Shown here one piece after another: positions 25,901 through 43,557 of a stretch of DNA of 50,683 nucleotides. The notes beneath the pieces were generated by a model. That model saw only the letters and a list, made by a program, of their open reading frames with translations. It did no database searches and was not told where the DNA came from. Origin of the DNA: a virus (lineage: Duplodnaviria > Caudoviricetes); IMG/VR virus record IMGVR_UViG_3300032132_000010, positions 1 to 50,683 of that record. The stretch is one strand, 5' to 3'. The position numbers and the translations under genes were made by a program. The number at the start of each line of letters is the position of its first letter. Position 1 is the stretch's first letter.

Positions 25901-28900
25901 CGCAGAAGAAGGGCGGGAAGGGGCCATCGGCCACGGCGCTATCCGGCCTTTACGCTCAAGACACGCACCCGCTCGGCCGCCTCGTCTACGCATCCGCGAC
26001 GGGCGCAACCGAGGTGCACAACCTCGCCTACGCCGAGCGCCTTGGACTGTGGGGCGAGGGGACGGCGTTCGGCAACGTGCTCGAGTTCGTGGCGAAGATC
26101 GGCAAGGGCGGGCTCGCCACCATGGAGCAGATCGCGCGCGAGCTGAAGCAGCGCGGGCTCTACACAGCGCGCGCCATCTCCATGAAGGGCGTCAAGTACG
26201 AGCGCCTGGAGCACAACCTCACCGACGAGCAGACGACCATCTACAACCGCGTGGCCGAGGCGTGGCAGATCGTCCACAAGAACATGGTCGCGGCGACACA
26301 GATTACCGAGGGCGGCAAGGAGGCGAACAAGCGATGGAAGGGCCAATACTGGGGGCTCAACCAACGGTTCTTCGACCAGATCATGACGTCGATGGCGATG
26401 CCTTCGACGCTCAAGCAGATGCACGCCGACATCGACGCCGGGCATTCGGTTGTGATCCAGCTGATCAACCACTACGGCGAACGCTTGGAGCGGCTGGAGG
26501 CTGAGCGAAAGCGCCAGGTCGCGGCTGGGGAGATTGATGAGGAGGCGTCGTTCGACTACGACCTCTCGCCCAAGGGTGACCTCATCGAGATGGTGAAGAA
26601 GGCGTTTCCTGTGCAGCAGTACGAGGAGGTGGTCGGGCCGGACGGCAAGCCGTTCAAGCGGCCCGTGACCGACAGCGAGGGCAAGCCCGTACTGAACCAG
26701 GAAGCCGTGCGGATGCGCGACGAGCTGCTGCTCGACCTGGATGAGCTTCGCATCCCGCTCGGGCCGGTCGACATGATCTATCAGGAGTTCGGCTCGGAGC
26801 GGGTGGGCGAGATCACCGGGCGCAAGCAGCGCGTCGAGTTCGTGGACGGCCGGCAGGTTGTGGTCAAGCGCAAGGAGAAGGCCGAGAACAAGGCGGCGGC
26901 CGACGACTTCATGGGCGACCGCATCCCCATCCTGATCTTCACCAAGAAGGGCGGGACGGGGCGCAGCTACCACGCCGACCTCGGCGCGAAGAACCAGCGG
27001 CTCCGCAGGCACTACGTCGTGCAGTCGGGCTGGATCGCCAACGACACGATCCAGGGGCTCGGCCGGACGCACCGGACCAACCAAGCGCAGCCGCCCGAAT
27101 ACATCCTCGTCCAGACGGACCTCCCCGGTCACAAGCGGTTCGTGTCGTCCATCGCGCGGCGCATCGAGCAGCTGGGCGCGTTGACCAAGGGCCAGCGAGA
27201 CGCGGGTGCGTCCCTGTTCACCGAAGCGGACAACCTCGAGGGCGCATACGGCAACCCCGCGGTGCGCCAGTTCATCAACAACATCGTCAACGGCAGGGTG
27301 GACGGCATCGAGGCCGAGGACTTGGTGGAGGAGCTGGGGATTACGGGCATCCTCACCGAAGCGGGCAACGTGGTGGACGCTAAGGTGCCCGAGGTCCCGA
27401 AGTTCCTGAACCGCATCCTGTCCACGACGACGGACAGGCAGACGGCGTGGTTTGAGGGCTTCAACAACCTGATGGTCGCCATGATCGCGGACGCGACCCA
27501 AAACGGAACGCTCGACACGGGGATGCAGACGCTCCGCGCGAAGTCGGTCAAGGTGAACAGCGTGACCGAGGTCCGCAAGGACGACGAGACGAAGGCCAAG
27601 ACGGAGCTCCTGTCGGTCACGACGACGAACGACAAGCCGCGTGTGCCGTGGGAGCAGGCGCAGAAGCGTTACCCCGCGGATTCGTTCTGGGTGAACAACA
27701 AGAGCGGCTTCGTCTGGTCGGCCGGCCCGAAGCGGAACCGCACCACGTCGGGCGGCAACGTCGAGGTGGTGCGCTCCATGTACGGACCAGGCGGGCGCGG
27801 GTCCGACGTCATGGACTACCAGCTGTCGGGGCACGGGAACAACTGGACGAACGTCACCGACGAGGCGCAGCTGGAGCGGATGTGGACCGAGCGGTACGAC
27901 AAGACGCCCGCCACCGAGGAGACGGACGTGCACCTCCTGACGGGGATGCTGCTCCCGATATGGGACAGGCTGCCGGACAAGGGCAAGGTCTACCGGATCA
28001 CGATGCCGGGCGGGACGCGCGTGATCGGGCGCGAGATCCCCGAGCGGGACCTGAGCTACACGCTGGAGAGGCTGGGCGTGGGCCGGCCGAAGCTGGAGAT
28101 GGAGCCCGCGGAGCTGGGCCGCCGCATCCTCGCGGGGGACCGCGCGGTGCTGTCGAACAACTGGGTGATCCAGGCCGTGACGGCGGCGAAGGAGACGCGC
28201 ATCGAGGTGGCCGGCCCGACGTTCGCCAACATGGACGCGCTCCAAAAGGCGGGCGTGTTCATCGAGACGCACGGCGGGAAGCGGCGATACTTCGTGCCGA
28301 CTGGCCCGCGCATGGCCGAGGCGTTGGAGGCGGTGCTGCTGGGGCGGGACATCATGCAAGTCGGCAAGCCGCGGACGATGCACCAGTCGGTGCTCGCTGG
28401 CGAGTCGCCGTTCCCGAAGCGCGAGAAGCCGACGCGGATGGGCCAGGAGGAAGCGCAGGCCGCTCCCGTGGAGGACGACAAGGAGTATCCGCAGGTTCGC
28501 GGCGGCATCGTGGACGGCCTCGAGGTGGGCGAGGACATCCCCAACGCCAGTTCCATCAGCGCCTCGCTGGGCGAGGACTACGAGGAGGTCGGCGTCCGCG
28601 AGATCCCGATGTCCGACTTCAGCTTCGACCCACAGCAGCTCTACTACGGCAGCCACCAGTTCCGCCGCGCCGAGGCGTTGGCCGAGGAGATCCGCGAGTC
28701 AGGCCGCATCGACCCGCTGATCGTCGTGCAGGACGGACACGCCGATGGGCCGTACCTGCTGGAAGGCCAGCACCGTGCGGGAGCCCTGCACATCCTTGGC
28801 AAGACCAGCTTCCCCGCGCTCGTCGTGCGCGACCTTGACCGCGAGACGATCACGCGCCAGCAGGGCCGCGGCGGCACGGGCGGCCCGCGCGGCGCGACGA

Positions 28901-31900
28901 CCTACTTCGCCACGCCCGACGAGCACGGACGGCGCGCGTTCACCGTCGCGTTCTACGAGAACGCCAACCGCTCGACCTTCTTTCACGAGATGGGGCACGT
29001 GTGGCTCGAGGCCATGGGGGACCTGGCCGAAGATCCCGAGTTCGGTGACGCCTTCAAGGACGACTGGACGTTCATCCTGTCCTTCCTCAACGTCACCAGT
29101 CGCGCCGAGATCGGTGAGCCCGAGCATGAGAAGTTCGCGGACGCCTTCATGTTCTTCGTGCTGGAGGGCAAGAGCCCGTCCGCGCGCCTGCGTCCGGCGT
29201 TCGCCTCGGCCGAGCGGTGGCTGATCCGCCTGTTCCGCAACCTCGACGACAAGGACATCGACCTCAACGACGACATGAGGGGGATCGCCGCGCGGCTGCT
29301 GGCGACCGACGACGAGATCGCGGCGGCCGAGTACGAGCTTGGCGGCACGGGGCTCTCCGACGAGATCCTGGCGGGCATGGACGAGGCCGATCGCGCCACG
29401 TACCTGAAGCACGTGGCCGCGGCCGGCGACATCGCGCGCGCGGAGCTGGGCGCACAGGTGCTCCACAACGAGGCCCGCGCGGCGGCGCGCGAGGAGAAGA
29501 TGGAGGAGTTCCGGGCGAAGGCCGCGAAGCGCGTGGACGAGCTCCCCGAGTCGGTGGTGCTCTCGGCCATGGCTCACGGCACGATGCCGGACGGCTCGCC
29601 GCTGCCCGAGGGGCTGTCGACCATGAAGCTGGACAAGGCTTCAGTGGTCGAGGCTCTGACCGTCATCAGCGCCGAGACAGGGCAGCCCTACGTGCGCTCC
29701 CCGAAGGTGGTCGAGCGCCTGGAGGACGCGGGGGTCCTGACGAACCAAGGCGGGGTCCCGGTGGAGCAGGCCGCCGAGGAGTGGGGCTTCGGCAGCGGCG
29801 ACGAGATGGCCCGTCGTATGTCGATCGCCCTGGACAAGCCGAGCCTCGTCGAAACGATGGCCCAGCAGGAGCTTGGCAACGAGTTCCCCGAGCTGCTGGG
29901 GACCCGTCAGATCCGCACCCTGCGCCGCAAGGCGGTCGCCAACGAGGAACGGGTGAAGCAGCTCGAGGACGAGCACAGGGAGCTACAGCGCCACAGGCGG
30001 GCCGCTGTGGACCGCATCCCCAGTCAGGCAGAGATCAAGGCGTCCGTGCTGGCCTTCCTCCGGCCGCTGCCCATCTCGGCGCTCCAGCCGCAGGCGTTCC
30101 TCTCGGCCGCTGGGCGCGAGGGCAACAAGTCTGCCGCCAGGTGGCGCGTCGGGGACTGGGATGGCGCGGCCGAGGCCAAGCGGCTGGAGCGGTGGAACCT
30201 GCTCGCGTTCATCGAGTCGACCAAGATGCTGACGCACGTCGAGCGGCAGAGCCGCTGGCTCAGTAAGGCCGCCGACGAGAAGGGCGAGATCGCCAAGACG
30301 CTGAACAAGGCCGGCCACACCTACTTCCCGCAGGTGATGGCGCTCCTCGAGCGGTTCAGCTTTGTGCGGCGCTCGGGTCCTGGGCTGGATCGGCTGAAGT
30401 CTCTGCGCGATTGGGTGGAGGGGCAGCGGAAGCAGGCGCGCGAGGTCGGTGACTTCCGCGAGATGGACATCCCCGAGAAGCTGCTCGACGAGGCGTTCCG
30501 CAAAAACTACCGGGACATGACGGTCGAGGAGCTGGCGGACCTCTACGACGCGGTGGCGTCGATCCACCACGTTGCCAAGAACAAGGTGCGGATGCTGAAG
30601 GCGAAGCAGAAGCGGACGCTCCTGGACATCGTGAAGCAGATCGTCCCGACAGTGAAGGCGAGCAAGAAGGCGATCGTGCGCGGGATCGGCGCGCGCAACA
30701 AGCGCGAGCGGGCGATGGATCTGATGGACGACGTGTGGGCCGGCGGCGTGAAGGCGGGCTTCTACGCGCGCGCGATGGACGGTGACGTGGACGGCGGGCC
30801 GATGGCATCGCACGTGGTCGCGCGGCTCAACAAGGCGGTGGACGTCGGGGCCGAGCGACTGATCGAGGTGCACCGCGCGCTGGTCGGGCTCTACAAGGCG
30901 AGCTTCAGCAAGGAGTACCAGCGCAAGATCAACCGGCGCGAGGTGATCGCAGGGCTGAACCTCTCGCGCGAAGATGTGATGTCGATCGCGGGGCACTTCG
31001 GTAACCCGCAGGGCCGCCAACGGTTGCTGATGGGGCTGTCGAAGGAGCAGCTGGCCGCGGTGCTTCAGACGATGACCGCCGCGGAGTGGCAGTTCGTTCA
31101 GGGACGCTGGGACCTCTTTGAGTCGTTCTGGGCAGAGATCGAGGAGCAACACGCGCGCCTGACCGGCGTCCGGCCGCGCGCCGTCGAACACCTCCCCTTC
31201 ACGATGACCTCCTCGGACGGGATCGAGGTCGAGCTCTCGGGCGGGTATATGCCGCTGATGTATTCGGACACGCGCCCGAACGCCACGGAGCTGGACGAGT
31301 GGGCGAGCGAGACGTACCGAGGCTCGGCGCTGTTCAAGATGATGCGGCTCGGCTTCACCAAGACGCGCAAGGAGCACGTGGACCGGGCGCTGCGCCTGGA
31401 CCGCGGTGTCGTGACACAACACCTCGCGGACGTGGTTCACGCGCTGTCGGTGCGCGAGGCCGTGCTCGACGTGCGGCGCATCCTTGGCAACAAGGACGTG
31501 CACAAGATCATCGAGAAGCACTACGGCCCTGCGGCGATCCGCAAGCTGAACCACTGGGTGACCGACGTCGCGGCGGGCAGCGCGGGCAGCCGCGAGGGGT
31601 TGGAGAAGGTGCTCGCGTACCTGCGCTACGGCACGGTGATCGCGCGCCTCGGGTTCCGCCTCGTCTCGGCCCTGAAACAGTGGTACGGGCTGCGCGCAAC
31701 CGTCGTCCGCATCGGTGACACGCCGGCCGAGGGCGCGCACTGGATCGGCGTGGGCGTCAAGCGGTGGCTGTTCCACCACAAGGGGTCGGCCGTCGACACG
31801 CCCGCGTGGGTGATGAGCGTCAGTTCCTTCATGAAGGGGCGACTGAACGGATCGTTCCAGCGCGAGCTGAACGAGATGCGCCAGGAGGTGCAGCGCGAGT

Positions 31901-32676
31901 TCATGAACGCCGCGAACGAGTACGCCTTCTGGATGCTGGCGCGGATGCAGTTCGGTGCCGACCTGATTACGTGGCTCGCGCAGTACGAAAAGACGATGAG
32001 CGAGATGGGCGCGGGCGTCGACCTCAAGGAGTGGGAGGCCGAGGCGATCCAGCGGGCGGACCAGGCGGTGAAGGACACGCAGGGCGGCGGCCAGTCGGTC
32101 GACCTGTCGTGGTGGGAGCGTGGCAACCCATTGCTCCGTGTGCTCACCACGTTCTTCACCGACGCCGGGATCAAGTTCAACCTCACGCGGCTGTCCGCGC
32201 AGCGCCGTAGCTTCAAGGGTGGGACGCCCTACGAGAACGGCATCGAGTACGCGCGTTTCCTCGCGGACCTGTCGATCCTCTACTTCACGACGCCCGCCGT
32301 CGTGGCGCTGGCCGCCATGGCTGGGCTCGGGGATGACGACGATCCCGACGAGATCATGGAGCGGTTCATCCGCATGGGCTTCGGGGAGATGGCCGACATG
32401 GTGCCGATCTTGCGCGAGGCGTCGGGGCCGATTCAGGGCTACCCGTACCGCGGGCCGGCGGGCTTGGGTGCGGTGCAGACCGGCATCGCCATGTCGCAGC
32501 AGATCGGACAGGGCAAGCTGGACAAGGGGTTGTGGAAGAACAGCGCGTTGTTCGCGGGCAACCTGTTCCACTGGCCGACCGGGGCGCTCGTCGAGGGTGC
32601 CGAGGCGTTTGAGCAGATGCTCCGCGGCGATGCGCCGAGCGCGCTGCTGGGCTTCCGCGACTACAACAAGAGGTAA
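19987..32676 (+). CDS. Giant polyvalent ejection protein (4,229 aa): N6-adenine MTase + Strawberry-notch-type SF2 helicase + ParB-like + HExxH modules (DarB-like)
   Basis: LEPSAGTG (nt ~24211), NPPF (~24403), GDGTGVGK (~25489), DESH (~25870), SATG, QGLGRTHR, LLEGQHR (~28760), HEMGH (~28984); last gene of ejection cluster. Confidence 0.88.
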   Translation: MTINVPASTGGDGDEQPQPQQQPQQQQAPPRPSESLSRDLLRHDGPLARFGENVAPPPSFRGPVDNLMAHYREREAAMQRAAMVAANNDPDEYAKGLTIGKLLGMPSSEAGHSAAKYGSPLFFHQLEHDLRAMDHNRPQLAAWLRNVDNAAVSSDDLDTLEKLHDSIVFAGKERSWFGEMWEAGENGLVGVQASYYHLAGLKGMIDLQAAAEGAADANRRIRESREGQSIGVQRYFQRVGRAKGALDTLMVAFSDPSNLGIMMADSLGFSAPSLVMAAAVGKAGAVGGTALGTATGLAPVAAGFAVAGGLAGAAVGAMAGGTFVEMGAWINQTIEETIDPTTGKAYDITDADSLFRAYSNTALMERAQAEGLRKGLTIGAVDAASIFLGGRFLRAAAGKGRLAKVAAYGKEGVTQGAMEGAGEGSSLLAVAGGDVLNWTEDDWAEWRKQMAIESAVSLGPEAGHVLIGYLARKPLDARERKMERVGKALQAEQNLGALLAAGEAYADSKTAGRNDGDEAGELVDTIASGAGVSILRWDKVTWDEFFTSRGLSPGEALAEIVPGEGPGSGIRMYHDAHANGEIRVSLRDLLKAKASTEEYAPLVALARSRHDLPSPVEAEEVLAEHEHENQEVVRRFQEERTLNQEAEDIRDKLAAAEENEGEGGPSPEEMVKLRGRRAEIEARLQELAKGRETVRQESQVVFDKALEELTAVRGADRDIGDPRVLATMHTAIVQTKAAAAGVPVAEMAKRVDVSFVAEQAPAAGDRPVAPVRPVTEPDGEADAVTPDAATAPGSGQEADTEADADRTLPEAGDEIEVFDALGKPRRGTVLAAKESADSGRLVRVRFDDGTEAMAADHADFAGARTPTGETYSLGGGHQPGLSTPSSVTGVPQGTLIRDLTDDQLRSVSKALSDHAAASSGKTSVAATRELRAVSAEAQRRKSEAAPAETDDGRVSYDVEADRLEPTGDIAASYSGDTLAKGKVNKPFTEDGSLWLATEVTENKDGQTVAKAYQLTPANEWTGETVTYDEAIERGADAAVGLFHGVQVKAKTIPGGDDAYVMTGPPADFAPEAAAPAAPGQSTDSPAAPAGETRRPHYSVSPQQLEEEARAAAGGTLHLEPLEAFPHPHLAGLASVLASMGDEAPVVTYDRGVLNPTVADDDRFREKFDLIERFVGEGADAAIPAIEDEPEVEVVPDDEFEAEDPPKNAKPLADEPTEGGNPVKEFLEGLVDKANEVLGPPPSQEEGATPTAPPAAPAPDATLPDDQAAESPEIAEKVKRTVELADRLDARLVIGHKDGAFTPPAPMTWQELQREAATYFGGTQAEGAFTSQDLANATEFWLNRRIARYPNPEALRFEDWVALVRSWSELIPTQTRRTDDKVKFQQFSTPSEYAAVIAWVANVTAEDVALEPSAGTGNIAAHAKVRGAAVVANEIDPMRAALLRALEIPVIYNENAEQISNILPDINPTVVVMNPPFSSSGTRNKKDTMIGSQHIDQALKMLRPGGRLVAIVGGGQARKGTGRTGMAFEASSFRGWWKRTMDTYTVRANVGVAGKVYSRLGTSFPTRVLVIDKTGPTANPESALDVDVETLGELITALEDVRDARPEVDRESGRPSVEAPGDAGSESGGRAPDAGAPVARPGSGGGGVQQPGVRTDTGDGDRGPAPAGGDGPASGDGAAGGPADAAGSPGAAGGGQATGGATAQPAGGDAGGLPASDDAAGAAPSGVEDTAAEESPQDEALIEKGAEFIAEADDEAGVFDTYAPAIAVKGASPHPSPLVESAAMASVSFPEIKHDLRLSKEAIAGASNAQLETAALAGQAFEVILPNGKRQGFFAGDGTGVGKTREIIAILMDNMNHGRKRHVWVSASKDLYDDAVREWGSMGGDPALLMNMKKVKANTGKIPNQDGVVFVNYDTLKVGAQYLPDGEAITDEGKVSRLDQIREWLGTESEEAAAEFDGVIVFDESHKMGSAIAQKKGGKGPSATALSGLYAQDTHPLGRLVYASATGATEVHNLAYAERLGLWGEGTAFGNVLEFVAKIGKGGLATMEQIARELKQRGLYTARAISMKGVKYERLEHNLTDEQTTIYNRVAEAWQIVHKNMVAATQITEGGKEANKRWKGQYWGLNQRFFDQIMTSMAMPSTLKQMHADIDAGHSVVIQLINHYGERLERLEAERKRQVAAGEIDEEASFDYDLSPKGDLIEMVKKAFPVQQYEEVVGPDGKPFKRPVTDSEGKPVLNQEAVRMRDELLLDLDELRIPLGPVDMIYQEFGSERVGEITGRKQRVEFVDGRQVVVKRKEKAENKAAADDFMGDRIPILIFTKKGGTGRSYHADLGAKNQRLRRHYVVQSGWIANDTIQGLGRTHRTNQAQPPEYILVQTDLPGHKRFVSSIARRIEQLGALTKGQRDAGASLFTEADNLEGAYGNPAVRQFINNIVNGRVDGIEAEDLVEELGITGILTEAGNVVDAKVPEVPKFLNRILSTTTDRQTAWFEGFNNLMVAMIADATQNGTLDTGMQTLRAKSVKVNSVTEVRKDDETKAKTELLSVTTTNDKPRVPWEQAQKRYPADSFWVNNKSGFVWSAGPKRNRTTSGGNVEVVRSMYGPGGRGSDVMDYQLSGHGNNWTNVTDEAQLERMWTERYDKTPATEETDVHLLTGMLLPIWDRLPDKGKVYRITMPGGTRVIGREIPERDLSYTLERLGVGRPKLEMEPAELGRRILAGDRAVLSNNWVIQAVTAAKETRIEVAGPTFANMDALQKAGVFIETHGGKRRYFVPTGPRMAEALEAVLLGRDIMQVGKPRTMHQSVLAGESPFPKREKPTRMGQEEAQAAPVEDDKEYPQVRGGIVDGLEVGEDIPNASSISASLGEDYEEVGVREIPMSDFSFDPQQLYYGSHQFRRAEALAEEIRESGRIDPLIVVQDGHADGPYLLEGQHRAGALHILGKTSFPALVVRDLDRETITRQQGRGGTGGPRGATTYFATPDEHGRRAFTVAFYENANRSTFFHEMGHVWLEAMGDLAEDPEFGDAFKDDWTFILSFLNVTSRAEIGEPEHEKFADAFMFFVLEGKSPSARLRPAFASAERWLIRLFRNLDDKDIDLNDDMRGIAARLLATDDEIAAAEYELGGTGLSDEILAGMDEADRATYLKHVAAAGDIARAELGAQVLHNEARAAAREEKMEEFRAKAAKRVDELPESVVLSAMAHGTMPDGSPLPEGLSTMKLDKASVVEALTVISAETGQPYVRSPKVVERLEDAGVLTNQGGVPVEQAAEEWGFGSGDEMARRMSIALDKPSLVETMAQQELGNEFPELLGTRQIRTLRRKAVANEERVKQLEDEHRELQRHRRAAVDRIPSQAEIKASVLAFLRPLPISALQPQAFLSAAGREGNKSAARWRVGDWDGAAEAKRLERWNLLAFIESTKMLTHVERQSRWLSKAADEKGEIAKTLNKAGHTYFPQVMALLERFSFVRRSGPGLDRLKSLRDWVEGQRKQAREVGDFREMDIPEKLLDEAFRKNYRDMTVEELADLYDAVASIHHVAKNKVRMLKAKQKRTLLDIVKQIVPTVKASKKAIVRGIGARNKRERAMDLMDDVWAGGVKAGFYARAMDGDVDGGPMASHVVARLNKAVDVGAERLIEVHRALVGLYKASFSKEYQRKINRREVIAGLNLSREDVMSIAGHFGNPQGRQRLLMGLSKEQLAAVLQTMTAAEWQFVQGRWDLFESFWAEIEEQHARLTGVRPRAVEHLPFTMTSSDGIEVELSGGYMPLMYSDTRPNATELDEWASETYRGSALFKMMRLGFTKTRKEHVDRALRLDRGVVTQHLADVVHALSVREAVLDVRRILGNKDVHKIIEKHYGPAAIRKLNHWVTDVAAGSAGSREGLEKVLAYLRYGTVIARLGFRLVSALKQWYGLRATVVRIGDTPAEGAHWIGVGVKRWLFHHKGSAVDTPAWVMSVSSFMKGRLNGSFQRELNEMRQEVQREFMNAANEYAFWMLARMQFGADLITWLAQYEKTMSEMGAGVDLKEWEAEAIQRADQAVKDTQGGGQSVDLSWWERGNPLLRVLTTFFTDAGIKFNLTRLSAQRRSFKGGTPYENGIEYARFLADLSILYFTTPAVVALAAMAGLGDDDDPDEIMERFIRMGFGEMADMVPILREASGPIQGYPYRGPAGLGAVQTGIAMSQQIGQGKLDKGLWKNSALFAGNLFHWPTGALVEGAEAFEQMLRGDAPSALLGFRDYNKR
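24791..25165 (+). CDS. Overprinted 124-aa acidic protein in the +1 frame of the giant gene
   Basis: GGAGG at 24777-24781 before ATG; codons in this frame are CTG/GAG/GCG-dominated while the host frame becomes A/T-ending and low complexity. Confidence 0.72.
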   Translation: MPAPKWIERVDAQALKHLETLGVSPAGEPPTLVLLSLGLEAAAGEFNSPAYEPILETEIADLRLLAATDPQAAMEQLGDPQMPLDHLEPLEAGKQLVEQLHSRLGETQEDYPPATTLPVQHPPA

Positions 32677-34682: not shown

Positions 34683-34801
34683 TGACGAGCTCGCTGGCGG
34701 GGCGAAGGGTGCAGCCGCCAGCGAATGAGCCGCCGCGCCCGTGGCTGCCCGAGATCATCCTCGCGGTGGTGATCCTGCTCATCTTGTGGGCGGCCGGTTG
34801 A
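34682..34801 (+). CDS. Small membrane peptide
   Basis: TGATG coupling; C-terminal IILAVVILLILW. Confidence 0.45.
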   Translation: MTSSLAGRRVQPPANEPPRPWLPEIILAVVILLILWAAG

Positions 34802-34866
34802 AGGTGCGCCGGCCCGGTGCGATGCTCGGGCCATCGTTCGGCACACCCCCATAGGAGATCGAGGCC

Positions 34867-35325
34867 ATGCGTCACGCCCTGCTGCTCTGCCTGCTCGCCC
34901 TGTCCCTGTCCGCCTGCACAAGTTCCGGCGGCGGGATGTCCCCCGAGATGCGAAACACGCTGCTGATCGGGCTCGCGATCGACGACTACAACGAGACGGG
35001 AGATGCGACGGGGCTCACGGCCGCGCTGGGCGAGGTGCTGGACGTTCCGGGCGGTTCGATGCTCGCGGAGCTGACGCAGGTCTACGTGGACTACACGCTG
35101 AACGGTGACCAGGAAGGCGCGAGGGCTGCGGCGCTGGCGGTGCTCGGCTTCGATAGCGTCCTGGTTGCGGATGGCGTCGAGCCGGACCCGCTGATCCTCC
35201 AGGTCGCCAAGCGGTTCCTGCGCGACAGCCCTGAGCTTGACGCGGACTTGGTGGCGCGGCTGCTGACGGCGAGGATGGGCCTTGCGGCGCTGGAACCCGC
35301 CGCGCCGGCTACCGGGGCCGGTTAG
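34867..35325 (+). CDS. Predicted lipoprotein
   Basis: AGGAG SD; signal peptide ending in lipobox LSAC. Confidence 0.75.
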   Translation: MRHALLLCLLALSLSACTSSGGGMSPEMRNTLLIGLAIDDYNETGDATGLTAALGEVLDVPGGSMLAELTQVYVDYTLNGDQEGARAAALAVLGFDSVLVADGVEPDPLILQVAKRFLRDSPELDADLVARLLTARMGLAALEPAAPATGAG

Positions 35326-35330
35326 GGCCG

Positions 35331-35377
35331 CTGGCGGCCCCCTTGTGGGCAAGGCGGGGGGGCCGCCGGTTTGTTTC
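35331..35377 (+). terminator. Intrinsic terminator ending the late operon
   Basis: GGCGGCCCCC (35333-35342) pairs GGGGGCCGCC (35358-35367), followed by a T-rich tail. Confidence 0.7.
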
Positions 35378-35405
35378 ATCGTGCCCGCCGCGCGGGACCG
35401 CGCGG

Positions 35406-35414
35406 TGCTAGAGT
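35406..35414 (+). promoter_or_regulatory. Extended -10 element (TGcTAGAGT)
   Basis: TGn-TAnnnT directly after the terminator and about 7 nt before the structured RNA. Confidence 0.5.
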
Positions 35415-35420
35415 GCTGGG

Positions 35421-35578
35421 CATGAGGACCGAGGAAAACGGTGGGCCTCATCTGGCCCACGATCCCCAAGCTGAAACGACGGCGACGTTCGCACGACGGT
35501 CGCCGCCGCCAGGTCCCTCGCGCGGTGTTGAGTGCCTCCTCGGTCCTCTCCCGCGCTTGGGGCCGTTTTCCTATTCGG
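35421..35578 (+). ncRNA. Candidate multi-branch antisense RNA / structured leader
   Basis: Stems 35432-41/35563-72, 35441-47/35454-60, 35464-71/35555-62, 35480-86/35499-505; segment 35533-35550 is complementary to several phage RBSs. Confidence 0.65.
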
Positions 35579-35661
35579 CTCGCGCGCGAGAGTTTGGGCG
35601 GTCGCTAACGCACCGGCCGCCCCCTACCCTTCTTCCCTTTCTGTTCTCTCGCGCGTGAGCC
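35577..35661 (+). promoter_or_regulatory. Second structured leader domain
   Basis: 16-bp stem 35577-92/35646-61 enclosing a 9-bp hairpin 35596-604/35614-22 and a pyrimidine tract. Confidence 0.55.
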
Positions 35662-35678
35662 ACTACCAGGAGACAGCC

Positions 35679-35975
35679 ATGAGTCCGCTCTATGAGTACC
35701 TGCGTCTGCTCGTCATCGGCGTCGTCATCGGTTTCCCGGTCGGCATCGGCATCGGCAAGGCCATCGACGGCGAGGAGGGCAGCGTCGAGGCGCGACGGCT
35801 TGAAGAACTGATCGTCGAGGCGACCAAGCCGCCCGGCCACATGCTGCTGGTTCCGACTGACAGCTGGCACCCGCCGATGCTGTACGCGCCGCCGCTGCCG
35901 GCGTGGTCGGTTGGCACCGTCCAGTTCCACGGTGACGCCATCCGCAACGGGTTCCAAGCGGACGAGATGAAGTGA
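35679..35975 (+). CDS. Membrane protein, first gene of the recombination/replication operon
   Basis: AGGAG SD; N-terminal TM helix. Confidence 0.65.
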   Translation: MSPLYEYLRLLVIGVVIGFPVGIGIGKAIDGEEGSVEARRLEELIVEATKPPGHMLLVPTDSWHPPMLYAPPLPAWSVGTVQFHGDAIRNGFQADEMK

Positions 35976-36073
35976 GCGCCCAGGACAGGACAACGTGGGC
36001 GATCAAGGGCTTCTGTGTCGGCGTCCTGGTGGGCGTCGGCGCGACACTCGCCGCGCTCTCGTTCATCCTGTGA
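35972..36073 (+). CDS. 33-aa TM microprotein
   Basis: GTGA-coupled at both ends; MSAQDRTTWAIKGFCVGVLVGVGATLAALSFIL. Confidence 0.55.
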   Translation: MSAQDRTTWAIKGFCVGVLVGVGATLAALSFIL

Positions 36074-37005
36074 GCGACTTCCGCGACCGCATCGTCACGT
36101 TCGACAGCAAGGAGGAGTGGCTGGCGTTCAAGCGCACGACGATCAGCGCGACGGACGTGATCGCCATCGTGGGGCTGCCCTACTTCGGGCGCACGGCCAT
36201 GTCGGTATTCATGGACAAGGTGGACCCCGACTACGGGGACGAGAGCAGCGCGGCGATGAGCCGCGGCACGGCGATGGAGCCCTTCCTTGTCAGCGCCTAC
36301 GCAGAACGGACGGGCGTCGAGCTTCTGGACGTGCCGCGCTGGTGGTGCGTCACGCACCCAACGCTGCCGTGGCTGTCGTGCTCGCCCGATCAGGCGTGGG
36401 CCGACTACCGGCGCAACGTGGAGGCCAAGACGAGCCGGACCCGTCGCGGCTGGCAGGACCCACGCGAGGCACCGGACGGGGTGCCCGAGGCGTACATCGT
36501 CCAGTGCGCGATCCAGACCGCTTGCTGCGAGACAGAGGGCGCGGACCTTGTGGCTGCCGTGGGCTCGCTGGACGACTTCCGCATCTACGACGGGCTGCAC
36601 CGGAACGCGCGGCTCGAGAAGGCGCTGATCGCGCGCGCGACGGAGTTCTACGAGAACCATCTCAAGCCCGAGGTGTTCCCCGAGTGGGACGGGAGCGAGG
36701 GAGCCGACCGGCTGCTGCGCTCGCTGTTCCCGCACAACACGACGACGGACCAGCTGCGCGAGGTGGACGACGAGGAGCGCGCGGTGGTCGACTACTTCTA
36801 CCTGGACGCGCAGGCCCGCATGAGGGCAGAGCACAGCGAGTCCATATGGGCCCAGCGGGTGCAGTCGATCATCGGGGACAGCCCCGGCATCTGCGGTCCC
36901 GGCTTCAAGATCACATGGAAGATTCAGGGTTCTGGCCGGGTGTTCCGGCCGACCTTCTACGAGGACTTCACCCCCACGACCGAGGAGACGGACGAACATG
37001 AGTGA
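36070..37005 (+). CDS. YqaJ/lambda-exonuclease family recombination nuclease
   Basis: EEWL..R..ISATD, G..MEP, SPD, VEAKT, P..Y..Q motifs. Confidence 0.88.
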   Translation: MSDFRDRIVTFDSKEEWLAFKRTTISATDVIAIVGLPYFGRTAMSVFMDKVDPDYGDESSAAMSRGTAMEPFLVSAYAERTGVELLDVPRWWCVTHPTLPWLSCSPDQAWADYRRNVEAKTSRTRRGWQDPREAPDGVPEAYIVQCAIQTACCETEGADLVAAVGSLDDFRIYDGLHRNARLEKALIARATEFYENHLKPEVFPEWDGSEGADRLLRSLFPHNTTTDQLREVDDEERAVVDYFYLDAQARMRAEHSESIWAQRVQSIIGDSPGICGPGFKITWKIQGSGRVFRPTFYEDFTPTTEETDEHE

Positions 37006-37678
37006 GCTTGACGACGTGCACGATGCCATCGCCATTGACGAGGTGCAGGCCGACGCGACCGCGTTGGTCACAGAGGCACAGGCGATCGTGATCGAGACGG
37101 ACGACCAGGCGCAGGAGGCCGGCGAGTTCCTGCGGACGCGCGTGAAGGCCGTGCTGAAGGAGGTGGAGGCCACCTTCAAGCCGATGCAGCAGGCCGCCGA
37201 CAAGACCAAGCGCGAGATCATGGATCAGCGCCACAAGATCGAGCGGCCGCTGAAGGAAGCGGAGCGCGTTCTCAAGGCGTCCATCTCCGAGTACGTGATG
37301 GAGCAGCGCCGCATCGCGGAGGAGGAGCAGCGCAGGGCCGAGGCCGCGGAACGCGCGCGCGCCGAGGAGGAGCGGCTGCGCGAGGCCGAGCGGCTGGAGA
37401 AGGAGGGGCACGACGACGAGGCCGAGGCGGTGATCGAAACCCCCGCCGTGGCCGAAGCCCCCCCGCCCGTGAAAGCCCCGGTCAAGGTCAAGGGTGTCGG
37501 CGTCAAGGAGGTGTGGGCGTTCCGGTTCACGAACCCCAAGGAGGTGAAGCCGGACTACCTCGTCCCGCACGAGAAGCTGATCGCCGCCACGGTGAAGAAC
37601 CTCGGCAAGCCGGCCGAGAAGATGGTCGGCGGCATCGAGGTGTACCGGACCACGCAGACAAGCTCGCGCGCGCAGTAA
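36998..37678 (+). CDS. Coiled-coil protein of the recombination module
   Basis: Long E/R/A helix with C-terminal W.F.....VK.DYL..EK.I...GIEVY domain. Confidence 0.8.
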   Translation: MSELDDVHDAIAIDEVQADATALVTEAQAIVIETDDQAQEAGEFLRTRVKAVLKEVEATFKPMQQAADKTKREIMDQRHKIERPLKEAERVLKASISEYVMEQRRIAEEEQRRAEAAERARAEEERLREAERLEKEGHDDEAEAVIETPAVAEAPPPVKAPVKVKGVGVKEVWAFRFTNPKEVKPDYLVPHEKLIAATVKNLGKPAEKMVGGIEVYRTTQTSSRAQ

Positions 37679-37707
37679 CGGCGCACCCCCACGAAAGGAG
37701 GCCACCC

Positions 37708-38883
37708 GTGGCCCAGGACAAGAAGAAGCAGGACCCCGGCAACGTCGCGGTCGCCAACCCGTTCGGCATCTCGGCGCGCGCCGAGGAAGAAACGGCGATG
37801 GCGCACACCGACAGCCAGCGCGCGATCGCGGAGGTGCAGGCGGCGATGATCCTCGCGCGCAGCAACCGCCGCAACCAGAAGGACGCCATGGATCGGGTGC
37901 TGGACGCTTGCACTCGAGTCAGCCTTGCGGAGAAGGCCACCTACGACTACTCGCGTGGTGGCACGGCGATCACAGGCCCGTCGATCCGACTGGCCGAGGT
38001 GATGGCCGCCAACTGGGGCAATATGCAGTACGGCGTCCGCGAGGTGTCGCAGGCGCACGGCGAGAGCGTGGTGCAGGCGTATGCGTGGGACCTGGAGACG
38101 AACACCAAGAGCGAGCGCACGTTCACGGTGAAGCATCTGCGCTCGGCGCGTGGCGGCACCACGAAGCTGACGGACCCGCGCGACGTGTACGAGAACAACG
38201 CCAACCAAGGCGCGCGCCGGCTGCGCTCCTGTCTCCTGGCGGTCATGCCCGGGGACGTCGCGGAAGCGGCCGTGGCCCAGTGCGAGCTGACGCTGAAGTC
38301 GAAGGTGGACTGCTCGCCCGACGCCATCAAGCGGATGGTCGAGGCGTTCGGGAAGCACGGCGTCACCAAGGCGCAGATCGAGGCTCGTCTCCAGCGGCGC
38401 GTGGAGTCGATCACGCCCGCGCAGCTGGTTCAGCTGGGCAAGATCCACACCTCGCTGGGCGACTCCATGAGCGTGGTCGGGGACTGGTTCAAGGCGGCCG
38501 AGCCGGAGGGCTCGCGCACCGACAACCTCGCGGACCAGCTCGAGGACGAGGTGCCGCCCGCCCAGCCCTTCCCGGCCGAGGACGACGCCCCGCCGCCCGA
38601 GCCGCCGGAGGACGAGCCCCCGCCCGTGGCCGCCGAGGAGATCCCGCTCAGGGATCTCGCGCCCGAGCCGGAGCCCGAGCCGCCCACGGAGCTTCCCCCG
38701 GAGGAGGACGACGGCCTTCCCACGCCGGAGCAGGAGGAGGCGTTCACGATGGGGCGCGCGGCGGCCGACGCCGGCGACACCATCAAGCTGAACCCCTACA
38801 ACGACATGGGGCAGAAGACCGAATACCTCGCGTGGCGCGCGGGCTGGAAGGCGTTCCACCAGGAGGTGCTGGACGCGGAGTAA
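37708..38883 (+). CDS. Putative ssDNA-annealing recombinase-like protein with acidic linker and Rmf-like C-terminal module
   Basis: AAGGAGG SD; EVQAA, Y.Y.RGG..I.GPSIRLAE...WGN, AWDLETN motifs; next to exonuclease. Confidence 0.6.
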   Translation: MAQDKKKQDPGNVAVANPFGISARAEEETAMAHTDSQRAIAEVQAAMILARSNRRNQKDAMDRVLDACTRVSLAEKATYDYSRGGTAITGPSIRLAEVMAANWGNMQYGVREVSQAHGESVVQAYAWDLETNTKSERTFTVKHLRSARGGTTKLTDPRDVYENNANQGARRLRSCLLAVMPGDVAEAAVAQCELTLKSKVDCSPDAIKRMVEAFGKHGVTKAQIEARLQRRVESITPAQLVQLGKIHTSLGDSMSVVGDWFKAAEPEGSRTDNLADQLEDEVPPAQPFPAEDDAPPPEPPEDEPPPVAAEEIPLRDLAPEPEPEPPTELPPEEDDGLPTPEQEEAFTMGRAAADAGDTIKLNPYNDMGQKTEYLAWRAGWKAFHQEVLDAE

Positions 38884-38889
38884 GGGCCA

Positions 38890-38925
38890 CCGGGCCGGAG
38901 GGGTGATGGCGGCCCTCCGGCCCGG
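38890..38925 (+). other. Perfect 13-bp hairpin without U-tract before the initiator RBS
   Basis: CCGGGCCGGAGGG (38890-38902) / CCCTCCGGCCCGG (38913-38925). Confidence 0.7.
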
Positions 38926-38945
38926 GCGGATCGAGGAGAGCGGCA

Positions 38946-39731
38946 ATGGCTGGCGACTGGATCAAGCTGCGGTGTGATCTGAAGGACGATCCCGCGGTCA
39001 TCAAGATGGCGGGGGACCTGGCGGTCCCTGTCGAGCACGTCTGCGGGTGCCTCGGGGTGCTGTGGTCGTGGTTCAACGAGCAGACCGTGGACGGTCACGC
39101 TCCGAGCGGGACAGGTTCGTGGCTGGACGGGTTTGTGCACCTCCCGGGGTTCACCAAGGCGATGGTGGAGGCGGGTTGGCTGGAGGCCGACAACGGCGGA
39201 CTGACCGTGCCCAAGTGGGGCGAGCACAACAGCGACAGTGCCAAGAAACGGGCGCTAGACACCCGTAGACGGGCACGTAGCCGCGCCAAGCCCCGTCCGG
39301 CCCGTGTCCGCAAAGTGTCCGGCAAGCAAGCGGACGAAAACGGGACACCCAACGACAGAGGTAGAGAGAGAGAGAGAGGGGAAACCGGCGGGCCCTCCGG
39401 GCCCAGCCCGCCGGTTTCCTCCCCGCGCGTGACGGCTGATCCAGCCTTGGGGATCCCTGAGACGTCGGCCACGCCGCCGCCGAGCTCGCCGGGGGCTCGC
39501 GGCGACGTGGCCTCGCCGTGCCCGTCCTGCGGCGACACAGAGGGGCAGGCGACGGTGGAGATGCGCGTACTCGAGACGTGCGAGAAGCATCAGACGAAGC
39601 TGAAGGTCGAGAACGCGACCCAGTGCGCGGACTGCGGGAACACGTACCACCTCCGCGAGTGGGAGCGGCGCGCCGGCTGCTCCCAGTGCGCGATGGCGAG
39701 CGCGATCGAGAAAGGAACCGACGATGACTGA
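38946..39731 (+). CDS. Phage replication initiator (wHTH N-terminus, Zn-finger C-terminus)
   Basis: MAGDWIK...L.DDP.V, LWSW, GF..AM...GWL, W..HN..SAKKRA motifs. Confidence 0.75.
   Translation: MAGDWIKLRCDLKDDPAVIKMAGDLAVPVEHVCGCLGVLWSWFNEQTVDGHAPSGTGSWLDGFVHLPGFTKAMVEAGWLEADNGGLTVPKWGEHNSDSAKKRALDTRRRARSRAKPRPARVRKVSGKQADENGTPNDRGRERERGETGGPSGPSPPVSSPRVTADPALGIPETSATPPPSSPGARGDVASPCPSCGDTEGQATVEMRVLETCEKHQTKLKVENATQCADCGNTYHLREWERRAGCSQCAMASAIEKGTDDD
39255..39425. promoter_or_regulatory. Putative replication origin within the initiator gene
   Basis: Clustered GTCCG/CGGAC-like repeats, an (AG)n run at 39363-39378 and a 14-bp inverted repeat 39380-93/39406-19. Confidence 0.5.
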
Positions 39732-40083
39732 CACCCCGACCCCCGACGTGTGCGTGGGCGACGACGTGAAACTGCTCGACCGATTGGATGAGGCTAGGCG
39801 GATGAACACCCGCCTGCGCGCCGAGGTCGAGTCGTACAAGGCGCAGGTGGGATCGCTGAAGTCCGAGCGCGACGAACTGAACCGTCTGCTGGGTACGGAG
39901 GTGGACCGGCACATCGAGACCCGCGCGGAGATCGTGCGGCTGCTCGACCTGCTGCGGGAGGTGTGCGACGGGCAGGAGATCCAGTTTGAGGGCGTGCCGC
40001 ACTACCTCATGAGCATCGAGGCCGGTGACGCCATCGCCGCCGAGATCAAGTCCGCCGACGCCGCGAGCGGGGGAGGTGGGTGA
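39724..40083 (+). CDS. Hypothetical coiled-coil protein
   Basis: AAGGA SD; heptad pattern. Confidence 0.7.
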   Translation: MTDTPTPDVCVGDDVKLLDRLDEARRMNTRLRAEVESYKAQVGSLKSERDELNRLLGTEVDRHIETRAEIVRLLDLLREVCDGQEIQFEGVPHYLMSIEAGDAIAAEIKSADAASGGGG

Positions 40084-40199
40084 TGGACCCGTGGCGGCGC
40101 GTTGACCCGGAGGACTTCATCACGTGGTGGCTCATCGGGATGTTTCTGCTCGTTCCCGTTGCGATCCTCGCCTTCACTTACAGGATGGTGAGAGGATGA
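40083..40199 (+). CDS. 38-aa TM microprotein
   Basis: GGAGG SD; coupled at both ends; hydrophobic helix. Confidence 0.6.
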   Translation: MDPWRRVDPEDFITWWLIGMFLLVPVAILAFTYRMVRG

Positions 40200-40411
40200 C
40201 TGACCCGATGATGAGCAAGATCCATTGTCCAACGTGCGGCAAGAGGGTGTCCGTGATCGGCCTCGACCAACATCATCAGGCGGAACACGGGTGCAAGTGC
40301 GTGAGCATCCACGCCGCCTGCCCGGAGTGCGGTTCCTACTTCCTGCCGGAAGGTGTGTACCACCACTACAACCGCGTCCACGCAAAGGCCGCCACCGGGG
40401 GAGGTGGGTGA
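40196..40411 (+). CDS. Small zinc-finger protein
   Basis: CPTC...H...H and CPEC...H...H. Confidence 0.7.
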   Translation: MTDPMMSKIHCPTCGKRVSVIGLDQHHQAEHGCKCVSIHAACPECGSYFLPEGVYHHYNRVHAKAATGGGG

Positions 40412-40668
40412 TGGTCTGGCCACCGTGGATGTGTCGCGTGTTCGGGCACACACTGTCCTACCGGCACATCAACCCCGACTCCACGATGATCGCGTGTCTG
40501 CGGTGTGGTGCCGAGCGCGACGGTGGCGACTTCTGCCCGTCGTTTGTTCCGTGGTCCGCGTGGGACATCGAGGATCCTGCCATTGATGAATGCGACGTGT
40601 GTGGTTGCCCGCGAAAGGCGCACCCCGTTCGCACGCCACGAGACGCCGAGGAGAACTGCCCCCAATGA
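40411..40668 (+). CDS. Small Cys/His-rich protein (C.xFGH type)
   Basis: CRVFGH, CLRC, CDVCGC. Confidence 0.65.
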   Translation: MVWPPWMCRVFGHTLSYRHINPDSTMIACLRCGAERDGGDFCPSFVPWSAWDIEDPAIDECDVCGCPRKAHPVRTPRDAEENCPQ

Positions 40669-40961
40669 CTGACCCGATGATGAGCAAGGAGCAGGCGGGC
40701 GAGGCGCTGGCGCGGGCGGATAGCTACGGAGACATGGGGTGGCAGGACGCCGCCGCCGAGGCTCACAACGATATGGTGGTAGAGGTCGCCCTCGACACCG
40801 ACCTCCCGCTGGCGGTCGCGTCGTACACGCGGGCGATGGCGTTGCTGGAGCGGGCGGAAAACGAACTCAAGTGCGACTGCCGCAAGTACCCGCACCACTG
40901 CCTGCTCTCCGAGATCGCGCCCGTTACGATGGCCTACCACGGCGACGGCGAATCGACATGA
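40665..40961 (+). CDS. Hypothetical protein
   Basis: GAGGAG SD; ATGA coupling. Confidence 0.65.
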   Translation: MTDPMMSKEQAGEALARADSYGDMGWQDAAAEAHNDMVVEVALDTDLPLAVASYTRAMALLERAENELKCDCRKYPHHCLLSEIAPVTMAYHGDGEST

Positions 40962-41152
40962 ACGGCGAACTCCAAACCGTCCAAGTCGATGAGCAGGCGG
41001 GCCGCCTCGGCCATCGCGCCAACTGGACCGTCCGCGTCGGGCCGGTAGTGGGCGGCTCGCCCTACTTCACCTTCTACGGCAAGCGCGACATGCTGATCGA
41101 CCTGATCGCACGGCTGTTGCTTGACCAGAACGGCTGCGACGAACCGACATGA
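40958..41152 (+). CDS. Hypothetical protein
   Basis: ATGA coupling at both ends. Confidence 0.55.
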   Translation: MNGELQTVQVDEQAGRLGHRANWTVRVGPVVGGSPYFTFYGKRDMLIDLIARLLLDQNGCDEPT

Positions 41153-41292
41153 ACGGCTGGGAGTACGTCCTTCCGGCGGCGGCGATCTACGGGCTGCTCC
41201 TCCTCCGGCGATGGTGGCTGGGCCGCTACCGGCGCGCAGCTGACCGGCTGCGCGACAGCCCTCCCGGCATCTGGCCCTACGGAGGTCCCTGA
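41149..41292 (+). CDS. 47-aa hydrophobic/basic microprotein
   Basis: Coupled at both ends; N-terminal hydrophobic stretch. Confidence 0.5.
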   Translation: MNGWEYVLPAAAIYGLLLLRRWWLGRYRRAADRLRDSPPGIWPYGGP

Positions 41293-41618
41293 TGGGACAA
41301 GCGAGGCTCGGCTACTACCCCGACGACGACCGCCACAAGCTGCGCCGGAACCAGGACCCCGCGACCAGCAAGCAGGGCGCGACCGACGCCGCGCGCCGGC
41401 TGGGCGAGATGCAGGAGCGGACGCTCCTCGCGGTGCGCGCGTATCCCGGCCGGACGTGCGCGGAGCTGGAGGACCTGGCGGGCGTCATGGGGCGCACGTT
41501 CGGCCGCCGCCTCGGGGAGCTGGAGAAGGCTGGCCGCGTGGAGCGCCGCCGCGCGCGCCCCTGTTCGATCACGAAGCGCCGCGCTGCAACGTGGCGAATC
41601 CCAACCCCGGAGGCATGA
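41292..41618 (+). CDS. Winged-helix DNA-binding protein
   Basis: R..DP.TS..A, G.T..EL, RRL.ELE..G.V, C..T.R....W pattern. Confidence 0.7.
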   Translation: MGQARLGYYPDDDRHKLRRNQDPATSKQGATDAARRLGEMQERTLLAVRAYPGRTCAELEDLAGVMGRTFGRRLGELEKAGRVERRRARPCSITKRRAATWRIPTPEA

Positions 41619-41620
41619 CC

Positions 41621-42013
41621 ATGTGGCCCTTCCCGAAACGCACGACCGCGCTGTTCGAGCTATCGGACCTCCACCTGATCCGGCGAGCGCGCCGCGCGGC
41701 CCTGTTCCTGGCGAGCGCGCGCTACACGATGGTCAAGCCCGACGTGACGCCGGTCGTCCGCGAAGCGATCCGCGAGCTCGCGGGGCGGCTCGAGCGACGG
41801 CATGAGGCGAGCGCGACCATGGATCTGCTGAACGAGCTGCGAAGCCCCATCGGTACGTCGGTTGAGATCGCCTGCGGTGGCGAAGGCGCGCTAGGGCTGG
41901 AGCGGATATGGGTAGACGGGTTCACCTACACGGGCGCGACACTGGCCGAGGCGCTGGCGAGCGCGATCGAGGCGCGGCGCGTGGCGCTGGCTCAGAAGGA
42001 CGAGCGCGCATGA
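41621..42013 (+). CDS. Hypothetical protein
   Basis: GGAGG SD; MWPF start. Confidence 0.65.
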   Translation: MWPFPKRTTALFELSDLHLIRRARRAALFLASARYTMVKPDVTPVVREAIRELAGRLERRHEASATMDLLNELRSPIGTSVEIACGGEGALGLERIWVDGFTYTGATLAEALASAIEARRVALAQKDERA

Positions 42014-42174
42014 CCAAAGACCCTGCCTCCTGGGAGCGCCGCGGCTACAAGAAGCAACCGACGCGCGCGGAGCTGGAAGCCGAGATCCGCGACCTCAAGG
42101 CGAGGCTGAAACTCGCGGAGGGCCAGGTCCGCAGCCTGCGCGGGCGGGCGAAGCGAAGGGACGAGCGCGCGTGA
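42010..42174 (+). CDS. Small coiled-coil protein
   Basis: PTRAELEAEI..LK.RL; coupled at both ends. Confidence 0.6.
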   Translation: MTKDPASWERRGYKKQPTRAELEAEIRDLKARLKLAEGQVRSLRGRAKRRDERA

Positions 42175-43394: not shown

Positions 43395-43414
43395 CTCCAG
43401 GCAATCTTTCGGGC

Positions 43415-43463: not shown

Positions 43464-43557
43464 AGATCGTGGGTCCAGGGATGCCGATGAGAGGTACGTT
43501 ATTGGAGTCGTGATGCGAACCACGACCACGCACTCACCAACAGAGAGGACCGAGGAC

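Follow-up and report, generated by a model that had tools for sequence, protein, structure and literature searches.

A predicted hairpin in a putative non-coding leader, complementary to extended ribosome-binding sites of several early genes in a Caudoviricetes genome

To our knowledge, each of the phage antisense RNAs that block ribosome-binding sites (RBSs), namely c4, CI, CA and sar, has no more than one or two sites of action, which lie close by. P1 and P4 carry an additional target copy 5' of the RNA (a1/b1 and seqA, respectively), and RNAs of this C4 type are released from a longer transcript by RNase P. RegA of T4 is a protein and an early product that represses many early mRNAs at their ribosome-binding regions, where its sites are loosely defined and AU-rich, and in cluster A mycobacteriophages the immunity repressor binds stoperators, DNA sites that lack a Shine-Dalgarno (SD) sequence. 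According to the accessible portion of PMC5320573, c4 RNA is a three-hairpin RNA of ~77 nt, located in an operon leader, whose two specificity loops (a' and b') can pair with a site further downstream that includes the RBS. The start-associated sequences (SAS) of cluster K phages are described, in the accessible portion of Pope et al. 2011 (PMC3203893), as asymmetric 13-bp sequences that contain AGGAG and lie 3-7 nt before mostly ATG starts of non-structural genes only; the same text proposes a reader that is 'either RNA or protein' and reports K1 phages with a single copy on the opposite strand. Excerpts of papers from 2024 and 2025 still call the role of SAS unknown, and in the literature collection searched, the sole paper to mention both SAS and 'antisense' uses the latter term in another sense. 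Here we analyse the IMG/VR virus record IMGVR_UViG_3300032132_000010, taken whole as a window of 50,683 bases and rated 100% complete, in which a folded non-coding element (35406-35578) carries the inverted copy of an extended SD sequence found before several early genes. The evidence is drawn from the sequence of this genome and of one relative, which is identical in the element.

A preliminary description had proposed this element as an RNA-only switch that represses a dispersed regulon through the RBSs of many early genes. Every sequence quoted there is present where it was placed, and the observation of a folded non-coding element with an anti-RBS sequence matching several gene starts was confirmed; the interpretation is partly supported. 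Sites were searched as maximal plus-strand matches of at least 8 nt to the complement of the anti-RBS 18-mer TGCCTCCTCGGTCCTCTC (35533-35550). This yielded 45 matches, seven of which reach at least 10 nt: four precede ATG codons, one is the leader's own copy (35424, 12 nt) and two (21299 and 25829, 10 nt each) lie inside a 4229-aa gene. The exact complements reported before ATGs 43558, 45875, 46957 and 36998 were thereby confirmed, as was the pairing with one G-U before the replication initiator (Table 1). All three non-self matches of at least 12 nt end 1-5 nt 5' of an ATG. Across the five sites the gap to the start codon is 1, 2, 5, 7 or 10 nt, and the start is ATG in 5/5 cases, compared with 40/66 genes genome-wide; two of the sites fall in the coding end of the upstream gene. 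The shared label reads (G/T)A(C/T)CGAGGAG, an extended SD sequence that is strong at five early genes and weak at three or four more, and its exact inverted copy occurs once, at 35537. A near-inverted motif, TCCTCGATC at 48345, lies within the open reading frame (ORF) 48103-48428, is hence coding and was left out of the anti-motif count. In addition, the 18-mer matches flanking bases of the trans sites that have no counterpart in the 5' copy of the leader (GA at 43543, GGCA at 45857 and 46942), a coincidence that we roughly estimate at ~1e-2 to 1e-3.

As an in-genome null, 50,666 plus-strand segments of 18 nt were tested for complements of at least 12 nt to positions -26 to -1 of genes. No RBS region was complemented by 50,597 of them, whereas 61 complement one gene, 56 of these in eight other scattered loci and five (35535-35539) adjoining the element. 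The only segments that complement two or three genes start at 35527-35534 (genes 43558, 45875 and 46957). The claim that the matches extend past the SD core was upheld by an SD-matched comparison, in which GACC precedes GAGGA at 4/14 RBS sites versus 2/131 sites elsewhere (Fisher p = 7.6e-4), one of the latter two being the leader's own copy. For ACC before GAGGA the counts are 6/14 and 6/131, two of the six belonging to the duplicated terminal copy. This ACC or GACC extension would be unable to pair with the usual 16S rRNA 3' end. With at most one mismatch, the label is found at 5/39 non-structural genes and 0/27 structural genes. Together, the unique segments, the SD-matched enrichment and this distribution indicate that the pattern is real and is not accounted for by the SD core alone. 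The proposed regulon is not truly dispersed, as had been claimed, since all candidate targets lie on the same strand, downstream of the element and in the non-structural region. An unsupervised inverted-repeat screen (81 sequences) was dominated by GC-rich low-complexity repeats.

The element is probably part of a 258-nt untranslated leader (~35421 to 35678) of the DNA-metabolism (early) operon, transcribed from an extended -10 promoter after the late terminator. Both sequence features named in the preliminary description, the terminator-like hairpin and the extended -10, are present; the promoter itself was not flagged by a simple sigma-70 scan of 34800-50683, which returned no promoter in that region, because TGCTAGAGT is not accompanied by a -35 element. 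An extended -10 at this position is plausible, with a transcript start at ~35421-35422, which would place the sense copy of the label at the extreme 5' end of the RNA. The non-coding nature of the stretch was borne out: 35371-35678 is non-coding by codon statistics, and the two ORFs that cross the leader score -0.40 and -0.20 per codon, against >0.04 for all 66 called genes. A coding role was ruled out for the 78-aa frame from ATG 35422, which would possibly be leaderless (-0.40 per codon, GC3 0.65), and for the 55-aa frame from GTG 35441 (-0.20 per codon), which had no homologue among proteins of 30-97 aa. Both frames are open in the relative, where a 144-nt insertion is a multiple of three, but this is not significant in DNA of 68% G+C. 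Rfam gave no match at gathering scores across the whole record and, at E up to 10, four matches to unrelated families in 35300-35700, none of them C4, so that the search brought no support for a known family; ARAGORN found no tRNA or tmRNA and no tRNA-like gene. Readings as a retron, an origin or an intron were dropped, there being no reverse transcriptase nearby and a likely iteron-like GA repeat sitting at 39357, within the initiator gene.

The four perfect stems of 7-10 bp described earlier exist in the sequence (10, 7, 8 and 7 bp), together with the 6-bp GCGCGG/CCGCGC helix of hairpin P3. Folding propensity is modest, with a z-score of -2.70 and 2/200 shuffles folding equally well. The minimum free energy (MFE) fold from 35421 (-77.8 kcal/mol) combines a closing stem of 9-10 bp with hairpins P1, P2 and P3. 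The multi-branch structure proposed earlier lacks its closing stem in the relative, and a rival fold is close in energy. In the MFE fold the 18-mer is largely self-paired within P3, which leaves free no more than the UCCUC loop (5 nt) and a few bulged positions, and its description as exposed was overstated. The claim that the 12-nt self copy competes with the closing stem agrees with the sequence: the two overlap by 4 nt, so that the pairings are mutually exclusive. In the alternative fold the 5' sense copy pairs with the anti-motif; this fold lies 7.2 kcal/mol above the MFE in this leader, and becomes the MFE when the upstream bases are included (35406-35578, -81.0) and in the first 158 nt of the relative's leader (-77.0). 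The small energy gap and the shifting preference indicate, in these predictions, a leader close to bistable. Further downstream, the pyrimidine tract at 35621-35652 is the most pyrimidine-rich 32-mer in the genome (next best, 25).

The metagenome search provided one usable relative, the 4.3-kb contig L030, whose YqaJ is 78% identical and whose DNA is 84-88% identical overall. The element is identical there over 162 nt (35404-35565), with five changes in the preceding 16 nt (35388-35403), and hairpin P3 is predicted in both phages despite the adjoining insertion. In the second leader domain, the two changes seen in L030 (35656 and 35658; G-U to G-C and U-A to U-G) leave the predicted helix paired. 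The insertion itself (2709-2852 of L030) is predicted to be highly structured and holds TTCTCCTCG, whose complement resembles the RBS before gene 40665. Other searches returned little: no relative by DNA search of the phages collection; in IMG/VR, 25-27% identity only by YqaJ, 32-45% only by the 391-aa protein and the replication initiator (23 and 51 loci), and nothing by paired 12-mers or by proteins 43558, 34867 and 35679. Among species-representative genomes, a YqaJ alignment found none and the 18-mer gave 17 matches, a chance level, with matching flanks or a sense copy in 0/17.

Our preferred reading, held tentatively and with less than even confidence, is that of an early-operon leader RNA in which a hairpin-borne anti-RBS matches the private label carried by the RBSs of some early genes and modulates this subset, while the 5' decoy copy tunes its availability. 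The arrangement suggests one RNA switching the translation of several labelled genes. Under such a mechanism, the UCCUC loop of P3 would contact the GAGGA core of a labelled RBS, and pairing would extend from the loop to 10-14 bp and block the 30S subunit. In this way the leader, whether cut out as a fragment that acts in trans or still part of the long transcript, would reduce translation of the labelled genes, and the 5' sense copy would act as an internal decoy that competes with the closing stem and sets the availability of the anti-RBS hairpin. The promoter, the RNA and its processing, its pairing in vivo and the direction of its effect are parts of this model that we infer. Also in its favour is the layout, in which a self-copy is followed by the antisense hairpin and then by the RBS targets, an order resembling the design of P1 c4. 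If correct, such a leader RNA, which addresses a gene set by an extended RBS label common to its members, would amount to a compact device for post-transcriptional timing, of a kind that could be searched for in other genomes.

Comparison with the C4-type RNAs (P1/P7 c4, P4 CI and N15 CA) shows both the likeness and its limits. As in that group, the putative regulator is embedded in a leader and has an RBS-complementary sequence with an upstream copy, and the 13-14 nt complements end 1-5 nt before three ATGs in the same direction of transcription. In contrast, the element does not match the Rfam C4 model even at E up to 10, carries one anti-motif rather than two loops, is predicted to fold into three hairpins plus the closing stem over ~150 nt, and has five to nine candidate targets over ~12 kb where C4-type RNAs have one or two local sites; nor does it show tRNA-like features by ARAGORN. 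Failing both the covariance model and the two-loop architecture, it is not a member of the C4 family. There is also no sign of a temperate lifestyle: protein family scans covered 34 of the 66 called proteins and found no integrase or repressor family among them. The earlier remark that the genome has no recognisable repressor agrees with these 34 proteins and holds for them only, and, with no integrase seen in this set, an immunity role is not indicated. With T4 RegA the element would share the logic of an early product acting on many early RBSs; unlike RegA, the proposed reader is an RNA with a complement of 10-14 nt.

The closest parallel in pattern is offered by the SAS of cluster K. Here, too, the label is asymmetric, has the SD core inside, is conserved beyond 16S rRNA pairing, lies a few nucleotides before ATG starts in one orientation and at non-structural genes only, and has a single inverted copy; in K1 phages that copy occupies a hairpin loop closed by GCGCGG/CGCGC, a stem sequence also seen in P3. 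The differences are equally clear: the SAS consensus GGGATAGGAGCCC has no match in this record at up to two mismatches, the strong copies are five and less uniform rather than 11-19, host and phage type differ, and the inverted copy sits in an early-operon leader here and near the reported late transcription start in cluster K. Because the SAS mechanism is itself unknown, the likeness is a suggestive resemblance of pattern only.

In phage Anaya we located 16 plus-strand SAS sites and a single inverted copy in the 385-nt gp96-gp97 gap, where it makes up the 10-nt loop above a GCGCGG/CCGCGC stem (fold z-score -4.69); this region is conserved in 182 cluster K records. Alignment of 13 cluster K leaders gave a consensus fold of 29 pairs, six of them with compensatory changes. 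The inverted SAS of Adephagia lies between genes 92 and 93, the gap in which late transcription 'appears to initiate' according to the accessible portion of PMC11373665. The conserved intergenic leader (34767-34925 of the Anaya sequence L083; 2079-2237 of the Adephagia sequence L096) begins its order of features with the motif ATTGrC..TTTAGACT, followed by two hairpins, the first small and the second long (GGCCCCGG), and by a third whose stem is GCGCGG/CGCGC and whose loop is pyrimidine. Across 14 phages (Adephagia and 13 others), the loop is a near-perfect anti-SAS in six and has two mismatches in a seventh, is degenerate and CU-rich in five, and is different or deleted in two. Unicorn has 17 consensus SAS sites and no inverted copy, and the 35 kb of it that were read contain no 8-mer complement of its loop.

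We regard it as possible, and as a weaker claim than the preferred reading of this locus, that in some phages an early-gene subset is labelled by an extended SD sequence and that the hairpin loop of a single leader RNA reads the label and retunes translation, so that an RNA would take the part that RegA has in T4; the cluster K SAS would then have a mechanism along these lines. This would give the first testable mechanism for SAS, which have been unexplained since 2011 (15 years without a known reader), and the presence of an inverted SAS in a hairpin loop makes the question experimentally approachable in a laboratory host.

Several observations weigh against the leader-RNA model. The RNA would be co-transcribed with its own targets, and the logic of such regulation is harder to see than for a repressor made late. 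On average, the bases of the 18-mer are unpaired with a probability of 0.24 in this leader and 0.34 in L030, the competing folds lie 4.6-7.2 kcal/mol apart with a preferred conformer that varies by phage and by folded length, and the 144-nt L030 insertion, which follows P3, replaces the 3' strand of the closing stem. Since the element and the target at 36978 are identical in L030, there is no covariation signal, and their identity is a weak sign of constraint because the surrounding block is itself ~98% identical (4 differences in 188 nt upstream). Four of the proposed targets top the 63 gene starts by RNAduplex (-36.2 to -30.5 kcal/mol); however, Glu-rich coding segments score equally, gene starts make up 3/14 of the best genome-wide segments, and site 36978, separated from its ATG by 10 nt, takes 11th place in the list of gene starts. 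The genome-wide energy ranking suggested in the preliminary description is therefore not specific and neither supports nor refutes the model, the signal residing in the contiguous exact matches and their positions. The sequencing runs listed as containing the region include no RNA run. Finally, the cluster K loop varies between subclusters while SAS does not, and together with Unicorn this means that the cluster K parallel fails its own test of loop-target covariation.

The alternative that fares best, to which we give a modest chance, is a bistable leader acting only in cis, in which the anti-motif pairs with its own 5' copy and resembles RBSs because that copy is an RBS of the preferred type. 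The cis helix could provide a duplex of the RNase III type, shield the 5' end or control some function of the leader, for example the loading of Rho at the pyrimidine tract or the translation of either the first gene or the 55-aa ORF. Sense copy and anti-motif can indeed form a helix of 12 bp, which is part of the MFE fold in the two cases given above, its exclusion of the closing stem follows from their overlap, and the sense copy stands 5 nt before GTG 35441 in a frame that is open in L030; the extreme pyrimidine tract and the second, covariation-compatible helix would be further cis features. The 18-mer, however, matches the trans sites over 13-14 nt and its own copy over 12 nt, and the extra flanks are needless for a cis helix. 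Moreover, the 55-aa ORF scores under every called gene and has no homologue, and a label that extends beyond the SD at unrelated genes is left unexplained.

It is unlikely, though worth weighing, that the label is of SAS type and is read by another factor (a protein of phage or host, or some feature of the ribosome), the inverted copy being incidental or a decoy. The motif shares the SAS traits given in the accessible portion of PMC3203893 (SD inside, few nucleotides before ATG, one orientation, non-structural genes only), that portion and the corresponding one of PMC11373665 treat SAS function as unknown and leave a protein or an RNA reader open, and several cluster K subclusters do not keep the loop complementary. 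No RNA-binding regulator was recognised among the 34 scanned proteins, and it would be a strange coincidence for an incidental inverted copy to fall within a hairpin of this non-coding leader and to combine flanks from separate sites.

We consider it improbable that the motif has no function and was spread by recombination at gene boundaries, one copy having been inverted by chance. The region is mosaic: a minority variant (depth 42 versus ~400) lacks 46954-47186, its joint lying exactly at the 3' end of the site 46942-46954, and another contig from the likely source sample diverges at 35409, inside the -10 element. Nevertheless, unrelated genes follow the sites, there is a single inverted copy and it falls in a predicted hairpin, and the SD-matched enrichment holds.

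Least probable of all are asymmetric, stoperator-like DNA operators of an unrecognised repressor, oriented with transcription and with one copy overlapping the early transcript start: the sense copy would span ~+2 to +13 of the putative promoter with the inverted copy ~100 bp downstream, and the copies are many, short, close to gene boundaries and aligned with transcription as stoperators are (a contrasting case to SAS in the accessible portion of PMC3203893), but here the motif is the RBS itself, includes the SD and stays within a narrow range of distances from start codons, the coding end of the upstream gene takes in two of the sites, and no helix-turn-helix (HTH) repressor exceeded its family threshold in the scanned proteins, the best hit being HTH_20 for 41292-41615 (E = 0.0036, below the cut-off).

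Table 1. Positions of the leader components, candidate target sites and flanking signals in the window
Feature	Position	Strand	Basis or remark
Intrinsic-terminator-like hairpin, 17 pairs, then TTGTTTC; end of structural/late block	35330-35370	+	Identical in L030
TGCTAGAGT, extended -10-like promoter element	35406-35414	+	Sequence; start at ~35421-35422 predicted
Sense copy GAGGACCGAGGA of the RBS label, 12 nt, leader 5' end, complementary to 35537-35548	35424-35435	+	
Closing stem, 10 bp, AGGAAAACGG (35432-35441) with CCGTTTTCCT (35563-35572)	35432-35572	+	3' strand replaced in L030
Hairpin P1, GUGGGCC/GGCCCAC, 7 bp	35441-35460	+	
Hairpin P2, CGGCGAC/GUCGCCG, 7 bp	35480-35505	+	
Hairpin P3: outer GUCCC/GGGGC, GCGCGG/CCGCGC, inner GAG/CUC and GCC/GGU, apical loop UCCUC; carries the anti-RBS 18-mer	35513-35563	+	Also predicted in L030
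Anti-RBS 18-mer TGCCTCCTCGGTCCTCTC	35533-35550	+	Exact match
Second leader domain: 16-bp helix (35577-35592 with 35646-35661) around a 9-bp hairpin (35596-35622)	35577-35661	+	Predicted
Pyrimidine tract, 29/32 bases; 35623-35645 predicted unpaired	35621-35652	+	
AGGAGA SD and ATG (35679) of the first operon gene, a 98-aa protein with a hydrophobic segment	35668-35681	+	
Target-type site GACCGAGGAG, 10 nt long, 10 nt before ATG 36998 (226-aa protein, phrog_10477)	36978-36987	+	Identical in L030
Target-type site GGATCGAGGAG, one C-to-T difference (G-U pair), 7 nt before ATG 38946 (replication initiator)	38928-38938	+	
Target-type site GAGAGGACCGAGGA, 14 nt, 1 nt before ATG 43558; after terminator 43415-43453 and an AT-rich -10-like patch	43543-43556	+	
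Target-type site GACCGAGGAGGCA, 13 nt, 5 nt before ATG 45875	45857-45869	+	
Target-type site GACCGAGGAGGCA, 13 nt, 2 nt before ATG 46957	46942-46954	+	
Weaker site ACCGAGGA before ATG 49540; duplicate at 265-272 before ATG 279	49526-49533	+	
Similar 8-nt partial sites	40646-40653 and 47789-47796	+	

The record, likely derived from a marine metagenome, has its 66 genes called by a codon model, all on the plus strand but the one at 48842-49354. The structural block runs from the terminase (3018) to ~35325, where the strong terminator-like hairpin ends it, and its tail proteins are ~28-30% identical to counterparts in Pseudomonas, Vibrio and Pelagibacter podophages. Within it, the 4229-aa ORF (19987-32676) takes up one quarter of the genome and is presumably a tail or host-interaction protein. 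The genes 3' of 35370 encode the 98-aa protein of the first operon gene, a YqaJ exonuclease, the phrog_10477 and phrog_3657 proteins, the replication initiator and RusA, followed by a second strong terminator, a C5 methylase and many small genes without assigned function.

Two DNA runs placed on the record showed contig joints only, without variant letters. In the likely source sample, minority contigs skip or replace gene-sized pieces, such as 46954-47186 and 40087-40660. The ends of the record (1-1422 and 49262-50683) are 85.5% identical without gaps (1216/1422) and hold paralogous copies of two genes (279-716 with 49540-49977, and 703-1230 with 49964-50488). These could be diverged terminal repeats or the product of a circular genome closed across two strain variants, in which case the true genome would measure ~49.3 kb.

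Further features were recorded among the non-structural genes. The phrog_3657 protein (37708-38880), encoded beside YqaJ, resembles ribosome modulation factor at residues ~343-382, with a Pfam RMF match of E = 0.0044 and 17.5 bits, under the 27.9 cut-off, and an acidic, proline-rich linker N-terminal to this stretch. A purine run with a (GA)n repeat (39357-39388, 29/32 purines) lies within the replication-initiator gene and may represent origin iterons; read placement left out 39350-39387 as a repeat. The sole minus-strand gene (170 aa, phrog_2428) has no Pfam match and faces gene 49540, which bears the weaker label TACCGAGGAAAC, over a 185-nt gap, so that the pair around 48842-49539 has a divergent, switch-like layout. 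The ORF 48103-48428, partly picked up by gene calling, contains several CxxC pairs and appears zinc-finger-like.

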